A DNA stretch of 5,863 bases from a virus (Duplodnaviria; Heunggongvirae; Uroviricota; Caudoviricetes): positions 1 through 5,863 of the IMG/VR virus record IMGVR_UViG_3300018486_000129, one strand, 5' to 3'. The notes below the pieces were generated by a model. That model saw only the letters and a program-made list of their open reading frames with translations, was not told where the DNA came from and did not search any database. A program made the translations under genes and the position numbers. The first letter of the stretch is position 1. Each line of letters opens with the position of its first letter. Positions 233 through 3,937 of the stretch are shown in pieces.

Positions 233-433
233 TTAATGCTCGCGTCGTCCGGCGACAACTTCGGATTTGTATTTCAGGTCGCCCAGCAAGAATTGCAGTT
301 TAAGCATCTTTGCCGCCGTGTAGTTTCCTGATTCCACAACCTCTTTCATGAGGTCATAAACGGCCGCAACATCATCAGCCAGGAACTCTTTGCGTTGCTG
401 CTCAGTCGCACGTTTGAAGGAAATACGCATCAC
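233..433 (-). CDS. Hypothetical small protein (65-66 aa), second gene of a coupled pair
   Basis: ORF-track frame 233..433. AGGAG at 445..441 precedes GTG 433 (7-nt spacer) and ATG 430 (10-nt spacer). The ATG overlaps the upstream TGA stop as TGATG. No family recognised. Confidence 0.5.
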   Translation of the reverse strand: MMRISFKRATEQQRKEFLADDVAAVYDLMKEVVESGNYTAAKMLKLQFLLGDLKYKSEVVAGRREH

Positions 434-699
434 TCATCATCTCCTGCCGCACATACAACCTCACAAAAAACATCAGCGGAATGTTTCTTTTTGAATGAAT
501 GGCGCTCAAAACCGCACTCAATATCAGGCGCAAAAACATCCACCACATACGGTCTTTCAGAATGTTTGTTTTCCCAACGATAAACCGTAGTGACGTTGAA
601 ATGTTTTAACGCTTCACGGAACTCAACGCTGCCCGTCAGGTTTTTTGAGGTCAGGTATTGCAGGAGGTTTTTTACTACTTCACGGTCTTGTACTTTCAT
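430..699 (-). CDS. Hypothetical protein (89 aa), first gene of a coupled pair
   Basis: ORF 430..699 with GGAG about 8 nt upstream of ATG 699. Stop overlaps the start of the 66-aa gene. No family recognised. Confidence 0.5.
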   Translation of the reverse strand: MKVQDREVVKNLLQYLTSKNLTGSVEFREALKHFNVTTVYRWENKHSERPYVVDVFAPDIECGFERHSFKKKHSADVFCEVVCAAGDDE

Positions 700-749
700 C
701 GGGTTATCTCCGGTTTAACCAGGGCGGGTATCGCTCGGTTTCGGGTATA

Positions 750-778
750 ACCATAGGAAATTTTTTCCCACCTGTAAA
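750..778 (-). promoter_or_regulatory. Candidate sigma70 promoter for the 89-aa/66-aa operon
   Basis: Minus strand reads TTTACA (778..773), 17-nt spacer, TATGGT (755..750), about 45 nt upstream of ATG 699, inside an AT-rich intergenic stretch. Hexamer match by eye only. Confidence 0.3.
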
Positions 779-794
779 GCACTTTTTATATAAA

Positions 795-808
795 TATATA
801 ATTATATA
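795..808. repeat. Perfect 14-bp AT-only palindrome TATATAATTATATA
   Basis: Read directly; it is its own reverse complement. Lies just after the methyltransferase stop and 16 bp upstream of the candidate -35. A related 12-bp copy is at 1930..1941. Confidence 0.6.
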
Positions 809-811
809 ATT

Positions 812-1399
812 CTATGCCACTTGCCAGAGAGCATCATGCAACTGGATACCTCCATTGCACTGGTTGCCCCAGCCATGCCAACCATCAGGTAAATCACCGC
901 GAGCAAACAGCTCAATACGAGGAACATCACCTAACAGCCTTACCAGCTTGTCACGAACCACATCAGGCTTCCGAGAATGCTCCAGACGAGGCGATGTAAA
1001 CGACTGAATGATCCCCGCATCAAGGCGGGTCGGCAATTTGCCTTTTACCGCAAACAAGCAATCTTCACTGTTTGCACGAGTCATATGCCCCATCCCCATC
1101 ACCAGCTTATCTGGTTGTCGGCTACCACATTTGTTCCATGTGAAGCCCTTCATGGTCATAAGCCTGAATCCCCATGCTTTCACCACCAGCAACGCTTCTT
1201 CTGGCTGAGTCGGAACCCACCACATGGCCAACAAACACGATTCAGGATTAGCAAGCTGCCAGACAGGAATACGAGCAATATCCTCAGCTTTCATCGTTGG
1301 ATACTTAAAACCAGCTCCACGATTCCCATCCTTACACTTATCTTTGTATTCCCAGGGGGGATCTGCATAAATCAGATTAAACAATGCAATTGCCTCCAT
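812..1399 (-). CDS. DNA N6-adenine methyltransferase, MT-A70-like (orphan, no restriction partner in window)
   Basis: 195-aa ORF with N-terminal ADPPWEY (DPPW catalytic motif of N6-adenine methyltransferases) and overall resemblance to phage Dam/MT-A70-like enzymes. GGAGG about 10 nt upstream of ATG 1399. Confidence 0.8.
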   Translation of the reverse strand: MEAIALFNLIYADPPWEYKDKCKDGNRGAGFKYPTMKAEDIARIPVWQLANPESCLLAMWWVPTQPEEALLVVKAWGFRLMTMKGFTWNKCGSRQPDKLVMGMGHMTRANSEDCLFAVKGKLPTRLDAGIIQSFTSPRLEHSRKPDVVRDKLVRLLGDVPRIELFARGDLPDGWHGWGNQCNGGIQLHDALWQVA

Positions 1400-1642
1400 G
1401 TTAGTTGTGCCTCCGGCGCTTATCTCCGGCAGTCATAACGCTGGCCAGCTCTACAGCAAACACAACGAAAAGGGCACTAACCAGACTGATTAATGCCCTT
1501 GCCTGTTGTGTGCCGGATATCGCCCGACAACGCTGTTTTGGTAACACGGCTACAGTTCCGTGCCGCTCCAGCTTTTACCCCTTTGCGGATAACAGGCCCT
1601 GCCTGTAACTTAGCCCCACGTTCGCCCGAAATGCGCACCAGG

Positions 1643-1697
1643 CACGCATAAAGATGAGCACGAAGAAGTAACTCCACCGAGCTTATCTTTATGTGTG
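1643..1697. repeat. Long inverted repeat (17-bp stem, 21-nt loop) just downstream of the tRNA
   Basis: 1643..1659 pairs with 1681..1697; core cataaagatgagc / gcttatctttatg. Two G.T positions (G.U in plus-sense RNA). No U-run on either side, so not a canonical intrinsic terminator. Confidence 0.5.
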
Positions 1698-1706
1698 AGA
1701 GTGAAT

Positions 1707-1782
1707 TGGTGGCCCCTACCGGATTTGAACCGATGACCGTGCGATTATGAGTCGCCTGCTCTAACCACTGAGCTAAGGGGCC
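1707..1782 (-). tRNA. tRNA with CAU anticodon, most like tRNA-Ile2 (lysidine, AUA-decoding)
   Basis: Minus strand reads GGCCCCTTAGCTCAGTGGTTAGAGCAGGCGACTCATAATCGCACGGTCATCGGTTCAAATCCGGTAGGGGCCACCA. 7-bp acceptor stem, D-arm GCTC/GAGC, anticodon loop CTCATAA, T-arm ATCGG/CCGGT with TTCAAAT loop, encoded CCA. Acceptor stem GGCCCCU and anticodon arm match host ileX-type tRNA as recalled from memory; elongator tRNA-Met is not excluded. Confidence 0.9.
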
Positions 1783-1808
1783 ATATTTGATTTGTTTGTC
1801 TGGTGTGG

Positions 1809-1859
1809 CGCCGCGCACGAAAATCCCAGCCAATAAATTCAGGATTTTTGGGCGCGGCG
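1809..1859. repeat. Long inverted repeat (18-bp stem, 15-nt loop) just upstream of the tRNA
   Basis: 1809..1826 pairs with 1842..1859 (cgccgcgcacgaaaatcc / ggatttttgggcgcggcg), 16 of 18 Watson-Crick plus one G.T. GC-rich base, A/T-rich top. No flanking U-run. Confidence 0.5.
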
Positions 1860-1929
1860 GCATATCAGACAAACATGGTTGATGCGTGCGCCCATGAGAA
1901 AAGCGCATAGAATGTTGTAACTATATATT

Positions 1930-1941
1930 TATATAATTATA
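1930..1941. repeat. 12-bp AT-only palindrome TATATAATTATA, second copy
   Basis: Perfect palindrome in the AT-rich gap between the Rz1 stop (1952) and the tRNA. Confidence 0.5.
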
Positions 1942-1951
1942 GAAATATATA

Positions 1952-2161
1952 TTACTTTCGGCAGTTGATTTCCCATGCCCTGTTATGAGCCAGAATATCT
2001 TTCTTTGTCTGGCGGTCCATAACATCGATGTCGTGATCAGTCAGGTAGATGGGCTTTACCCAATCACAGGCGGTATCAACCACCACCGGGACGCTTCCAC
2101 GACTCCCGCAGCTCGCGATCAACATCGTCATCAGCCATATGGTTAACACTCTGCTGTACAT
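1952..2161 (-). CDS. Rz1-like o-spanin (outer-membrane lipoprotein), overlapping the 3' end of Rz in another frame
   Basis: 69-aa ORF MYSRVLTIWLMTMLIASCGS... with a lipoprotein-type signal peptide and lipobox IASC. Strong RBS AGAGGTGGGG about 5 nt upstream of ATG 2161. Overlaps Rz by 86 nt. Not proline-rich, so the call is tentative. Confidence 0.55.
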   Translation of the reverse strand: MYSRVLTIWLMTMLIASCGSRGSVPVVVDTACDWVKPIYLTDHDIDVMDRQTKKDILAHNRAWEINCRK

Positions 2162-2354
2162 TCCCCACCTCTTTTATCACTTCTATACGCCGCTCCGCAG
2201 TGGCTTTTACGGCGGCTGCATTCTCATTAATGCGCTGCTTTTCAGCTTCATCTTCGGCCTTTTCTCGCCCCTTCATACGACCAAAACCAAACGCGCCAAA
2301 TGCAACCAATATAATTGTGCCAATAAATGACAAAACGGCCTTCAAACCAGTCAT
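2076..2354 (-). CDS. Rz-like i-spanin (N-terminal transmembrane helix plus charged coiled-coil domain)
   Basis: 92-aa ORF with hydrophobic N-terminus LKAVLSFIGTIILVAFGAFGFG followed by a charged, helix-prone region. ATG 2354 overlaps the endolysin stop as ATGA. Sits directly after the endolysin. Confidence 0.6.
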   Translation of the reverse strand: MTGLKAVLSFIGTIILVAFGAFGFGRMKGREKAEDEAEKQRINENAAAVKATAERRIEVIKEVGNVQQSVNHMADDDVDRELRESWKRPGGG

Positions 2355-2893
2355 ACCACCACTCGCTCTTTCATCCAGCCGTAGACAAACGACTCATTAG
2401 CCTCGCGCTTCTCCGCCAACTCCAGATAGCGTTCGCCCTGCGTACAGTTCAGCGACGTCAGCATCACCCGTTCGCCGTCTTTTCCCCGATTCCCAAGATA
2501 AGCACGCAGCGCATTAATGGTACGTGGACCGATTCGTCCGTCTGCATCCAAATCGGGATACAGCTTCCCACGCAGGTTGAACACATTCAGCCAGCGTTGA
2601 AGCATTTTTGACGCCACTGTTGGCCCCATGTTGACGCCCGTGTCGCACAGTTCTGCGGCAATATCCGGCGACAGAGTTGCTATCTGGTCAAAACGTGGGC
2701 CGTACCAGTAATCAGCCTCAAGGATTTCCAGAGCCTGTTCGCGAGTTAAATCGCGCATATCGCCACGGTATCCATGAGCACGGGCAGTGTTCTGAGTAAT
2801 GCCCCACTTTGTTGGGCCTCCCTTGTCGTCAGGGTGATCCACATAGCCGCCCTCTTTTCCAAGAATGCTGTTAAAAATCTCATCTTTGGTCAT
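2351..2893 (-). CDS. Endolysin, GH108-like N-terminal domain with PG_binding_3-like C-terminal domain
   Basis: 180-aa ORF. N-terminus ILGKEGGYVDHPDDKGGPTKWGIT matches the GH108 signature and the C-terminal half resembles the PG_binding_3 peptidoglycan-binding domain. No N-terminal hydrophobic SAR segment. Start overlaps the upstream gene by 14 nt. Confidence 0.85.
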   Translation of the reverse strand: MTKDEIFNSILGKEGGYVDHPDDKGGPTKWGITQNTARAHGYRGDMRDLTREQALEILEADYWYGPRFDQIATLSPDIAAELCDTGVNMGPTVASKMLQRWLNVFNLRGKLYPDLDADGRIGPRTINALRAYLGNRGKDGERVMLTSLNCTQGERYLELAEKREANESFVYGWMKERVVV

Positions 2894-3176
2894 GATTAAA
2901 CCCTAATGCGTCAACTATCCGCGCCAGATTGCCCCTGAAATACAGAACAACGATGCAGATAATCAGATTTCCAATAACCACCAGCCAGTGGGATTCTTGA
3001 TAAAGACCGAACACATAACGGAAGGGAACATTGGCGTATACAATGACGTAGATATAAGCCAGAAAGGAAACAAATGGACGATGCCTGGAGTCTTTCCGTC
3101 GATAAAGCATCAGCGCAATTACTATTACTGTGCAAAGCACCGCATTAATCAGTGCTGACGGGTCACTGCTTACCAT
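2880..3176 (-). CDS. Small three-helix membrane protein, possible second holin or antiholin
   Basis: Three hydrophobic helices in about 98 aa. Start chosen at ATG 3176 (MVSSDPSALI...) because GGAGGGGG lies 5-6 nt upstream; the ORF-track start at 3212 has no such RBS. Confidence 0.55.
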   Translation of the reverse strand: MVSSDPSALINAVLCTVIVIALMLYRRKDSRHRPFVSFLAYIYVIVYANVPFRYVFGLYQESHWLVVIGNLIICIVVLYFRGNLARIVDALGFNHDQR

Positions 3177-3558
3177 TTGAACCCCCTCCACGTAAGCGGG
3201 AAAGCATTCCAAAGATGCTACCGAGATCCTGGCTGTTTACGAACGTGAGGATTTTAATTGTCAATGCAGCCACAATAACCGCACCAAGCGCATCCAGAGG
3301 ACGATCGTTGTAGCTGGTCCATTTGGCAAGAAATGAGCCAACTAACGGCGCTCCAATCACTCCAACAATGAACGATGTAAAGAAATAGCCAATCAGCTTG
3401 AGACGGCTAATATTCACCGCTGTAGCAACATAGAAAACAGCGCCAGCAAATGCCCCGAATACAACGCCGTAATCAATACCAGTTGCAATACCAAAAACGC
3501 TGGCACCCATCAGGCCACCAGCAGCAACGGCCGTACCGGAAATTGGTTCTGCTGACAT
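3163..3558 (-). CDS. Putative holin (131 aa, about four transmembrane segments)
   Basis: Highly hydrophobic Gly/Ala-rich helices with a short charged C-terminal tail. First gene of the lysis cassette. RBS GAGGA 5 nt upstream of ATG 3558. Confidence 0.65.
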   Translation of the reverse strand: MSAEPISGTAVAAGGLMGASVFGIATGIDYGVVFGAFAGAVFYVATAVNISRLKLIGYFFTSFIVGVIGAPLVGSFLAKWTSYNDRPLDALGAVIVAALTIKILTFVNSQDLGSIFGMLSRLRGGGSNGKQ

Positions 3559-3571
3559 TGAAATCCTCGTT

Positions 3572-3604
3572 AAAAAAAAAGCCCCGCCGAAAAAGGCAGG
3601 GCTT
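3572..3604 (-). terminator. Rho-independent terminator directly upstream of the holin RBS (tR'-like)
   Basis: Minus-strand RNA AAGCCCUGCC-UUUUUC-GGCGGGGCUU followed by nine U (plus-strand A-run 3572..3580). Stem has one U.G wobble that would be a C.A mismatch on the plus strand. Confidence 0.65.
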
Positions 3605-3937
3605 CATAAAGCAACAAATTACGCGGTAATCGCTTAACGCAGTTTTACTACGTTAAATGAAACACTACACCCAGTTACCACCTAAAACAAGGCTTCCCCA
3701 TAAAAAAACCTTCATTCTGTGGTTAACTGATCAATAAAAAAACAATACTCAACTTTTTACCAACCGAACATCCCGACCAGGACTTCCATAATATTCGCCG
3801 ATATGCCACTGCTTAAGTTGAGTAATCTTCTCCAACTTAACGCCCATAGAGTCCAGTTTCTGCCATGTTTTCGGTTGTATGTGCTTCATTACCCGCTCTG
3901 AATATCTGAATACTGCTCGTAAGCGCATGGCTTCTCA
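3605..3937 (-). promoter_or_regulatory. Non-coding leader upstream of the lysis cassette; candidate late promoter and short terminated leader RNA
   Basis: About 335 bp with no ORF of 60 aa or more on the minus strand, AT-rich in places, ending in the terminator. No confident -35/-10 pair could be assigned by eye. Confidence 0.35.
3813..3840. repeat. Inverted repeat TTAAGTTG-N12-CAACTTAA in the leader
   Basis: Perfect 8-bp arms at 3813..3820 and 3833..3840 separated by 12 bp. No adjacent U-run. Confidence 0.4.

Follow-up and report, generated by a model that had tools for sequence, protein, structure and literature searches.

AT-only 8-bp box arrays beside a tRNA-methyltransferase block are putative binding sites for a small partition protein of an E. 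coli phage-plasmid family

The window (the whole 5,863-nucleotide stretch analysed here) derives from the ~48-kb RepA/ParA phage-plasmid family of E. coli, and every credible gene in it lies on the minus strand (Table 1). The last two lysis ORFs overlap and probably encode an Rz1/Rz-type spanin pair, judging from their arrangement and the lipoprotein-like sequence of the 69-aa product; RefSeq annotation includes a homologue of the 92-aa ORF only, not of the 69-aa one. They are followed by a tRNA gene and by a gene for an MT-A70 family methyltransferase, which is ~73-75% identical at the nucleotide level in Salmonella and IMG/VR relatives. The tRNA is variable cargo that Salmonella relatives lack, and in the tRNA-methyltransferase block Rfam reports nothing but this tRNA above the gathering threshold. 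The long hairpin has z-scores of -5.4 and -8.1 and 5-6 compensatory pairs among three lineages, the plus strand giving the better fold, and the terminator-like hairpin has a counterpart in a Salmonella relative that shares its stem ends and has a longer loop.

Table 1. Positions of genes, box arrays and other elements in the window
Feature	Positions	Strand	Sequence or remark
Promoter-plus-leader cassette	707-785	-	adjoined by left array; upstream of 89-aa ORF (430-699)
Cassette, conserved leader	down to 707	-	
Cassette, -10-like element	755-750	-	TATGGT
Cassette, spacer inverted repeat	756-768		GGAAA-N3-TTTCC
Cassette, -35-like element	778-773	-	TTTACA
Cassette, upstream heptamer	785-779	-	AAAGTGC
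Left array	786-817	none	three full boxes and one degenerate; includes palindrome 795-808
Left array, box 1	786-793		TTATATAA
Left array, box 2	794-801		ATATATAA
Left array, box 3	802-809		TTATATAA
Left array, box 4 (degenerate)	810-817		TTCTATGC; overlaps methyltransferase stop codon
Methyltransferase gene	812-1399	-	MT-A70 family, 195 aa; Pfam MT-A70, E 3.4e-23
Terminator-like hairpin	1470-1500	-	between tRNA and methyltransferase gene
tRNA	1707-1782	-	CAU anticodon; Met per ARAGORN, tRNA-Ile in RefSeq NZ_AP022818.1 (same gene)
Conserved long hairpin, ~33 bp	1793-1875		between right array and tRNA
12-mer	1910-1921	none	GAATGTTGTAAC; beside right array, invariant in three lineages
Right array	1921-1952	none	adjoins stop codon (1952-1954) of last lysis ORF; includes 1930-1941
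Right array, box 1	1921-1928		CTATATAT
Right array, box 2	1929-1936		TTATATAA
Right array, box 3	1937-1944		TTATAGAA
Right array, box 4	1945-1952		ATATATAT
Last lysis ORF	1952-2161	-	69 aa, lipoprotein-like (...LIASC...); overlaps 92-aa ORF (2076-2354)

The original prediction drew attention to two strings at the edges of the tRNA-methyltransferase block, both described as perfect palindromes. The first, TATATAATTATATA (795-808), is indeed self-complementary over its full 14 nt. The second, TATATAATTATA (1930-1941), differs from its own reverse complement and is palindromic in its 10-nt core TATAATTATA (1932-1941) only; adding its flanks gives a 30-bp palindrome, 1922-1951, with a single mismatch. 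As originally described, both strands carry TATAAT. Nowhere else is the window as rich in AT as in the two patches (GC 0.30-0.33). With up to one mismatch, TATAATTATA occurs five times in the window against 0.17 expected, a number that none of 200 dinucleotide-preserving shuffles reached. Both strings are junctions of two boxes within tandem, in-phase arrays of 3-5 near-palindromic 8-bp boxes with the consensus TTATATAA, in which T2, T4, A5 and A7 are invariant. The left array matches three tandem TTATATAA units at 23 of 24 positions, and its variation in relatives falls chiefly on box positions 1, 3, 6 and 8. Over its first 30 nt the right array does not differ between the E. coli type and one Salmonella lineage, shows one substitution in another relative (L010), and has been kept although the neighbouring lysis cassette was replaced. 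The adjacent 12-mer reads GTTACAACATTC in gene sense; a convincing -10 element was looked for after it and none was found.

TTTACA-17-TATGGT, beside the left array, is the best sigma-70 match of the region and the only good one in the window. We infer that the cassette to which it belongs is the promoter of the next operon, starting with the 89-aa ORF, and that the left array belongs to this operon and not to the methyltransferase gene. In a whole member of the family (L007) the cassette is present in three copies of 98-99% identity; exactly three copies occur in each of 61 plasmids, and six in one 94-kb record. An array of the left type abuts the -35 side of all three copies, and some copies have an intrinsic terminator immediately upstream of that array. 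At the right array no convincing promoter could be recognised; the best candidate is a perfect TATAAT with a very poor -35 element (CTGCCG) that is unconserved in Salmonella. The suggestion that the palindromes are bidirectional promoter elements finds no support in the window, whose credible genes and only good sigma-70 match all share the minus strand.

Arrays of the same kind recur throughout the element. L007 carries eight, seven of them with at least 20 of 24 matches and one at the junction of parA and the partner gene described below, and no arrays appeared in 50 Markov simulations. All are intergenic, save for 3-6 nt over a neighbouring stop codon (P ~2e-7 given 15% intergenic DNA). They fill 7 of the 26 intergenic gaps, other AT-rich gaps being among the 19 that have none. 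They consist of 24-40 bp of 100% A/T in a genome of 44.5% GC, and they are spread over the plasmid/early half, the structural-gene half being free of them. Salmonella pAR-0407-1 has eight arrays at orthologous positions despite its swapped lysis cassette and tRNA region. Three replicons yielded 21 arrays with 75 boxes, in which the TATA-to-TATA spacing peaks at 8, 16 and 24, and at one Salmonella cassette copy the array is shorter by one 8-bp unit. The conjugative plasmid p0083-27kb has five arrays, two of which lie inside its VirB operon, where an array stands between virB9 and virB10; the box/partner module is also present in this operon. The phage-plasmid family itself is common: the cassette occurs in at least 62 complete plasmids, including the 48.5-kb plasmid of E. 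coli ATCC 25922 (NZ_CP009073.1), and some members have been isolated as infective Yersinia phages. Searches of the literature found no paper on the regulation of the ~48-kb RepA/ParA family, and nothing under the Yersinia phage names of its members. pSLy3 was considered as a member; it belongs to the ~100-kb SSU5 supergroup and therefore lies outside the family.

The par locus of L007, outside the window, encodes a 217-aa ParA (38106-38759; Walker A GKGGVTKS from residue 10; Pfam matches CbiA, ParA and MipZ) and an 82-aa partner (38803-39051). As expected for type Ib systems, ParA is a small Walker-type protein without an N-terminal HTH domain and the partner ORF begins 43 nt after parA. Homologues of 77-82 aa occupy the partner position in L008, L029, L030-L035, L073 and L084. 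Two arrays (37978-38009 and 38059-38082) bracket the parA core promoter TTGGTT...TATAAA, one of them over the -10 element, and a further array fills the 43-nt gap between parA and the partner gene. The bracketing layout is also found in L008 and L084, and at least one array lies upstream of parA in L029, L073 and four of L030-L035. In sequence terms, an autoregulated type Ib par operon is arranged in this way, and the two patches of the window share box consensus and phase with the par operator, which makes them sites of one kind.

Co-occurrence and co-variation are what links the arrays to the partner. ParA and the partner are the only proteins common to the array-bearing replicons that were fully compared (the E. 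coli and Salmonella phage-plasmids and p0083-27kb); identity is 45% for ParA and 39% for the partner. Contigs from Pectobacterium, Erwinia, Pantoea, Serratia and Shimwellia contain the same par pair together with arrays, which in these six contigs lie at the junction (6/6), upstream of parA (4/6) and also ~0.7-1 kb away. L073, whose partner is 42% identical, has no AT arrays and instead carries five in-phase 8-bp boxes of the ATGATAGC type upstream of parA. Scanning viral contigs with ATGATAGC-N8-ATGATAGC for longer relatives of L073 gave chance matches only, and plasmid BLAST led to a Serratia element, pJSRIV006_2, with AAATATTT-type boxes at parA, at three analogous promoter cassette copies and at one more site. 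In the Serratia lineage, the box type of the dispersed arrays changes together with that at parA.

In the AF2 model of the partner, the N-terminus is disordered and the C-terminal part forms two helices. Searches of Pfam and PDB with the partner alone gave no match, nor did fold searches with its AF2 monomer. With a profile of the 94-member partner family, the top three PDB matches are all ribbon-helix-helix (RHH) proteins, namely SvtR (2KEL, E 0.005), ParG (1P94, E 0.022) and a CopG-family protein (E 0.055), values that are borderline (E 0.005-0.05) for a search of 177,635 sequences; Pfam RHH_10 is matched by 28 of the 94 members. The family profile thus links the partner to RHH proteins transitively and at borderline significance. 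The partner looks ParG/omega-like, with a basic N-terminal tail that is predicted to be disordered and a putative RHH-type domain at its C-terminus. Against the partner as binder, its predicted beta-strand tracks box type in no simple way: TTATATAA-type boxes are found with both MAFNVD and LNLYVD, and ATGATAGC with the similar LNLRID.

Taken at the level of sequence comparison, the AT patches are probably binding arrays for the phage-plasmid's own small centromere-binding protein, the 82-aa partner. That they are operators had been one of the original suggestions, and the comparative evidence favours it: these are multi-box arrays on or beside promoters, and their box type co-varies with the par locus. 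A very improbable alternative is that the patches are junction scars of an inserted moron, also originally suggested, or terminal inverted repeats of a mobile cassette carrying the tRNA and methyltransferase genes. Positions 786-817 and 1905-1936 do form a 32-nt inverted repeat with 28 of 32 matches, and homology does break beside arrays, the lysis cassette being swapped up to the right array and p0083-27kb sharing sequence only as far as a left-type array. The inverted similarity, however, arises because the boxes are palindromic and align either way round, and the extra GCATAGAAT match is unconserved in Salmonella. The motif occurs at eight intergenic places per genome, not two, and it is merely the choice of window that puts the palindromes at the edges of the block. 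The methyltransferase gene is conserved in three lineages, remains in ~75%-identical relatives and is present in every examined relative having the adjoining cassette copy, and no relative lacks the block exactly between the arrays. Alignment to relatives, originally proposed as a check with boundaries elsewhere as the refuting outcome, places the tRNA indel breakpoints at ~1636 and ~1793; the tRNA was gained or lost inside the block, and the scar reading therefore fails. Nor is the composition of the block deviant (GC 0.506, against 0.461 and 0.495 in the flanks). A transposable element with terminal inverted repeats was likewise rejected, as the ORFs of the window include no transposase or integrase match and no flanking target duplication was seen.

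The patches could also be parts of sigma-70 promoters that need no dedicated protein, either UP elements or -10 hexamers, possibly bidirectional, which we regard as unlikely. Perfect TATAAT hexamers stand on both strands, and at the three cassette copies the array begins 7 nt upstream of the -35 element and would cover about -45 to -75, in the range of UP elements; the promoter-proximal box with AAAGTGC resembles a proximal UP subsite. The UP-element layout (AT tract at about -40 to -60, -35, -10) is present at the left array and absent at the right, junction and intra-operon arrays, and some arrays stand at places where a promoter would not be expected: the 43-nt parA/partner gap, the virB9/virB10 interval and, for the right array, a site just after a stop codon without a usable -35. 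Furthermore, box sequence and 8-bp phase are conserved far beyond the needs of an UP element, the one-unit-shorter Salmonella array points to unit-wise evolution, and box type differs by element (TTATATAA, AAATATTT, ATGATAGC) among enterobacterial hosts that are close relatives and presumably have much the same RNA polymerase. We give still less credence to binding by host H-NS, Fis or IHF, or to bendable AT tracts that silence or insulate foreign genes. H-NS prefers pure A/T tracts, and the pure A/T composition of the arrays in a genome of 44.5% GC suits such a reading; the strict phasing, the invariant box positions, the AT-rich gaps and the structural-gene half without arrays, and a box type that is lineage-specific and tied to the par locus argue against it. 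Tracts of this length and composition would also attract H-NS and the alpha-CTD of RNA polymerase, which counts against the partner as binder. Equally doubtful is another element-encoded regulator, the candidates being a 124-aa protein encoded upstream of parA, a 94-aa HTH-like protein beside cassette copy 3 and a 126-aa/90-aa HTH pair transcribed from that copy. Their genes adjoin arrays, the 94-aa and 90-aa proteins match HTH domains weakly or clearly, and in each of the four phage-plasmid lineages seen the 124-aa gene keeps its syntenic position. Yet the Salmonella element has all eight arrays without the 94-aa protein, p0083-27kb has its five without the 124-aa, 126-aa and 90-aa proteins, and tandem 8-bp boxes fit RHH proteins better than HTH dimers (PMC3130281). 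A CI-like repressor was rejected as binder, since the repeats in its divergent promoter region are ACCAC-N5-GTGGT and AT boxes are lacking there.

Binding of the partner to the arrays would have its closest precedent in TP228 ParF/ParG (parH, O_F; type Ib), where ParG boxes repeat every 8 bp, direct or inverted, and are coated cooperatively with one dimer per box (PMC3130281). Both systems pair a small Walker ParA with a small RHH-type protein that has a flexible tail, the tail and the fold being putative here, and have short-box arrays of 8-bp repeat upstream of and over the par promoter; ParG is also the second-best PDB match of the partner-family profile, although at a marginal E-value and with the family profile only. 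They differ in that the box here is an AT-only 8-bp near-palindrome and ParG's is ACTC with a 4-bp AT spacer, and in that an array here comprises 3-5 boxes, against 8-12, and the arrays are scattered over ~8 loci, phage promoters among them. Omega of pSM19035, an RHH partition protein and global regulator, has heptad parS arrays that overlap three promoters, and full activation of the ParA ATPase takes at least four contiguous repeats (PMC9499535). Like the arrays described here, these are several short-repeat arrays at different promoters, which in omega double as centromeres, and its requirement comes close to the 3-5 boxes found here; unlike them, the repeats are 7 bp, non-palindromic and 7-10 per site, on a Firmicutes plasmid without phage genes, as opposed to 8-bp palindromic boxes on an enterobacterial phage-plasmid. 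The phage-plasmid N15 also has several separate sites, unlike the one tandem centromere of F (sopC), and these are reportedly dispersed over the genome, some near phage promoters. They are four natural SopB centromere sites (IR1-IR4; PMC7205306). N15 is, however, type Ia, its ParB (SopB) being a large HTH protein and its sites single palindromes of the 16-bp class. KorB of IncP RK2 has 12 dispersed O_B operators, some just upstream of -35 elements and others far from promoters, classes that parallel the cassette arrays and the intra-operon arrays of p0083-27kb, but it is a large HTH ParB with a single 13-bp palindrome per site. MetJ binds tandem 8-bp palindromic met boxes, each operator having 2-5 of them and each box taking one RHH dimer; the parallel is purely formal, MetJ being a chromosomal metabolic repressor with the box AGACGTCT and a need for corepressor.

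If the partner is the binder, one dimer would sit on each 8-bp box, adjoining boxes would be coated cooperatively, and the arrays would serve as par operator, as centromere-like sites and as control points at other promoters. The left array would then modulate, most likely repress, the operon headed by the 89-aa ORF. Standing by itself behind the lysis genes, the right array might be an extra centromere, a roadblock site or a control element of the tRNA-methyltransferase unit. More tentatively, the ParG-like protein could be the master regulator of the phage-plasmid, holding down three identical promoters as well as the sites beside the lysis/tRNA region; the cassette copy of the window may then drive the packaging and structural gene cluster. 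For scans of this kind, the case is a caution that AT palindromes seeming to bound a gene block may be genome-wide operator copies. Should the arrays be the partition protein's sites, they would provide a testable map of how a plasmid-maintenance protein could control phage promoters, as well as a compact pair of operator and regulator, the 8-bp box with its 82-aa protein, of which natural specificity variants exist (TTATATAA, AAATATTT and ATGATAGC). If the possible master-regulator role were also true, segregation, copy state and lytic programme would all be wired to one small protein.

Both AT-rich patches of the window are runs of 8-bp boxes in phase. The original prediction described two perfect AT-only palindromes, and both positions hold, as does the palindrome TATATAATTATATA at 795-808, but the string at 1930-1941, TATATAATTATA, is palindromic only within TATAATTATA (1932-1941). 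The palindrome is in fact the join of two neighbouring TTATATAA boxes. The motif is far more frequent than chance predicts, with five matches (at most one mismatch) against 0.17 expected and none of 200 shuffles reaching five. Across 75 boxes from 21 arrays in three replicons, the consensus is [T/A]T[A/C]TA[T/G]A[A/T], with T2, T4, A5 and A7 nearly invariant, and genomic TATA-to-TATA spacing has maxima at 8, 16 and 24. Because the boxes are palindromic, the left and right patches match in inverted orientation at 28 of 32 positions.

The credible genes of the window all lie on the minus strand. Its DNA matches non-mobilizable E. coli plasmids of ~48 kb, among them both NZ_AP022818.1 and one from ATCC 25922, at 98-99% identity, and Yersinia phage vB_YpM_41 shares ~97.7% identity across 84% of it. 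The complete E. coli element L007 encodes RepA, a ParA, a CI-like XRE/S24 repressor and lambda-like head and P2-like tail genes, and is therefore a phage-plasmid. It contains six exact copies of TATAATTATA and eight arrays, seven with at least 20/24 matches to three tandem boxes and the eighth at the junction of parA and the gene of its 82-aa partner, whereas 50 first-order Markov simulations of the genome yielded none. All eight lie between annotated genes, save 3-6 nt over an adjacent stop codon; since 15% of the genome is intergenic, the chance probability is ~2e-7. Arrays occupy 7 of 26 gaps of at least 40 nt, all within the plasmid/early half. The arrays very probably form a genome-wide set of sites that a protein recognises by sequence. 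The operator reading originally proposed is broadly right, and the box type of the set changes with the par operator.

Coordinates of arrays, genes and other features (L007, complete E. coli element; L029, plasmid p0083-27kb; L004, Salmonella relative; L017, IMG/VR relative)
Feature	Replicon	Position	Strand	Remarks
Left array boxes	window	786-793, 794-801, 802-809		degenerate box 810-817
Right array boxes	window	1921-1928, 1929-1936, 1937-1944, 1945-1952
Cassette copy	window	707-785	-	promoter + leader, ~80 nt
Cassette copies	L007	34144-34222; 43031-43109		promoter + leader, ~80 nt
Arrays	L007	43110, 34223, 26968		directly upstream of the three cassette copies
Array	L007	28104		after lysis genes; right array of window
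Array	L007	33006		before gene 32711-32992
Arrays	L007	37978, 38059		either side of parA core promoter
Array	L007	38757		in 43-nt gap, parA to next gene
ACCAC-N5-GTGGT-type repeats	L007	36650-36830		three to four; divergent promoter region beside CI-like repressor
Arrays	L029	7179-7210, 8954-8977		short gaps within VirB type IV secretion operon
Arrays	L029			one each upstream of parA, at parA/partner junction, at IS26-truncated cassette remnant
GcvB-like match (RF00022)	window	3573-3728	-	full model covered
Holin 1	window	3163-3558	-	first in transcription order
Holin 2	window	about 2880-3176	-	after holin 1
GH108 endolysin	window	2351-2893	-
Rz-like ORF	window	2076-2354	-	overlaps next ORF
Lipoprotein-like ORF	window	1952-2161	-	overlaps Rz-like ORF
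Hairpin, ~33 bp, conserved	window	1793-1875		between right array and tRNA
tRNA, CAU anticodon	window	1707-1782	-	RefSeq: tRNA-Ile
MT-A70 methyltransferase	window	812-1399	-
Two small ORFs	window	430-699, 233-433	-	last in transcription order
Missing segment	window	435-675		absent from vB_YpM_41 and one IMG/VR contig
Conserved unannotated DNA, ~380 nt	L004	4997-5372		E. coli type has only tRNA there
Conserved unannotated DNA, ~380 nt	L017	about 6170-6700		same

The left patch is part of a repeated, putative promoter cassette rather than a block edge. The element has three copies of window 707-809, with 98-99% identity; 61 plasmids each have exactly three cassettes, and a 94-kb record, apparently a dimer, has six. 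In gene sense the cassette reads boxes, AAAGTGC, TTTACA, a 17-nt spacer that includes GGAAA-N3-TTTCC, TATGGT and a leader of ~45 nt stopping just short of the Shine-Dalgarno sequence. We infer from this layout a promoter; in other copies an intrinsic terminator lies directly upstream of the array, which fits a new transcription start at the cassette. The spacer inverted repeat looks like a second operator, for another regulator. The first downstream gene (an 89-aa ORF) is dispensable or variable, since the missing segment removes most of it. At the right array, which with the adjoining GAATGTTGTAAC is essentially unchanged across E. coli and Salmonella lineages, no convincing promoter was found. 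The hairpin beside it shows 5-6 compensatory pairs across three lineages. As plus-strand RNA, antisense to all genes, it folds clearly better (-54.5 versus -40.3 kcal/mol), and no U-tract comes after it on either strand. Upstream of the lysis genes, the GcvB-like match (36.3 bits, gathering score 42; E 9e-7 in local search) has a GU-rich R1-like stretch and a 3' end formed by a strong terminator (3578-3605) immediately before the holin gene, and may represent a phage-borne GcvB-like sRNA.

The patches had also been read as boundaries of a tRNA-methyltransferase module, possibly the scars of an inserted moron. With eight arrays per element, and the left one a cassette part, they do not mark the block. 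Salmonella pAR-0407-1, ~75% identical across the methyltransferase region, retains both patches and the three cassettes, and its eight arrays occupy orthologous sites; no tRNA was found in it, and its lysis cassette differs as far as the right array. Its homology to the window is lost near 1636 and returns near 1794, with ~380 nt of unrelated DNA between. In L017 this ~380-nt region is present with the tRNA inserted inside it; this places the breakpoints within the block and makes the methyltransferase part of the backbone. Block GC (0.506) matches the flanks. Insertion boundaries in relatives thus fall elsewhere than at the palindromes, which on the prediction's own terms rules out junction scars. 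The ~380-nt region of the Salmonella and IMG/VR relatives showed no convincing ORF and no Rfam family. Many plasmids of ~80-150 kb, the majority ~90-100 kb, from E. coli, E. albertii, E. fergusonii, Salmonella and Klebsiella have a sequence that matches the tRNA at 94-96% identity; these plasmids may be P1-like. Chromosomal E. coli tRNA-Ile genes match it at about 90%, a pattern suggesting plasmid-to-plasmid exchange.

Several proteins could in principle read the arrays. The CI-like repressor was rejected, as its own divergent promoter region has ACCAC-N5-GTGGT repeats, likely immunity operators distinct from the AT arrays, and no AT boxes. A 94-aa HTH-like neighbour is absent from the Salmonella element, and the 124-, 126- and 90-aa proteins are absent from p0083-27kb. 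Only ParA was found in all compared replicons by tblastn, and the partner lies beside it in every one (tblastn, pairwise BLASTP or downstream-ORF translation). The parA promoter region has an array upstream, an array over the -10 and a third adjoining the next gene's ribosome-binding site, which is how an autoregulated type Ib par operon is laid out. The partner has an N-terminal stretch rich in proline and lysine, then QMAFNVDPEFKREYKTFASSMDMSLKEVLTKSFELLKAQY; its AF2 model gives 40 low-confidence N-terminal residues and two C-terminal helices. Direct searches with the protein and fold searches with the monomer model gave no matches. About 300 small relatives emerged when 1.84 billion representatives were searched with a profile, and an alignment of 94 of these had as its top three PDB matches SvtR 2KEL (E 0.005), an RHH protein (PMC5569661), then ParG 1P94 across its RHH domain (E 0.022) and a CopG-family RHH protein (E 0.055). 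Since 28 of the 94 also match Pfam RHH_10, the partner is likely, if indirectly, an RHH protein. We lean towards this ParG-like partner as the binder, with appreciable doubt.

The same par type occurs in p0083-27kb, a conjugative MOBC/VirB plasmid carrying cfr (ParA 45%, 77-aa partner 39% identical), which has five arrays containing TATAATTATA. Those in the VirB operon are without an obvious promoter, and suggest that this non-phage plasmid, too, has a partition-protein regulon. Six contigs, from Pectobacterium, Erwinia, Pantoea, Serratia and Shimwellia, share this par type; their arrays are found upstream of parA in 4/6, at the junction in 6/6, and also about 0.7-1 kb off. Contig L073 keeps the family order CI/126-aa/ParA/partner (partner 42% identical) and contains no AT arrays; directly upstream of its parA are five 8-bp boxes in phase, ATGATAGC/TTGCTATC. 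Serratia pJSRIV006_2, at 44 kb, is a member whose tail is of siphovirus type and whose lysis genes are followed by neither a tRNA nor a methyltransferase; its parA promoter has AT arrays on both sides, built from another box, AAATATTT. This box type also stands before a Lar-family gene and directly upstream of three analogous cassette copies (array, TTGCAG/TTGCAA, AGGAAAAAAAGTCCT, -10, conserved leader) that differ in sequence from the E. coli type. Dispersed arrays thus change together with the par operator, which is the strongest evidence for a single element-encoded reader, presumably the ParA partner. The residues predicted to form the ribbon show no simple correspondence with box type: MAFNVD and LNLYVD occur with TTATATAA-type boxes, but the similar LNLRID with ATGATAGC.

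By analogy with ParG and omega, partner dimers would coat 3-5 boxes cooperatively. ParG places one dimer on each of its boxes, which recur every 8 bp, at an operator as well as a centromere (PMC3130281); omega arrays of contiguous repeats overlap several promoters and also act as parS, at least four repeats being required for ParA activation (PMC9499535). Because the array adjoins the upstream side of the cassette -35, binding should change RNA polymerase recruitment, and our guess is that it represses, as in par operons. The right array may be a stand-alone centromere, a roadblock or a control site of the tRNA-methyltransferase unit. TP228 ParG with parH and O_F, pSM19035 omega and RK2 KorB are among the closest systems. 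N15 SopB, another, uses four separate IR sites (PMC7205306). The box here is an AT-only 8-bp palindrome, spread across a phage-plasmid and tied to a triplicated promoter. We found no paper describing these phage-plasmid box arrays, which add a case of the ParG/omega/SopB/KorB kind with an unusual box.
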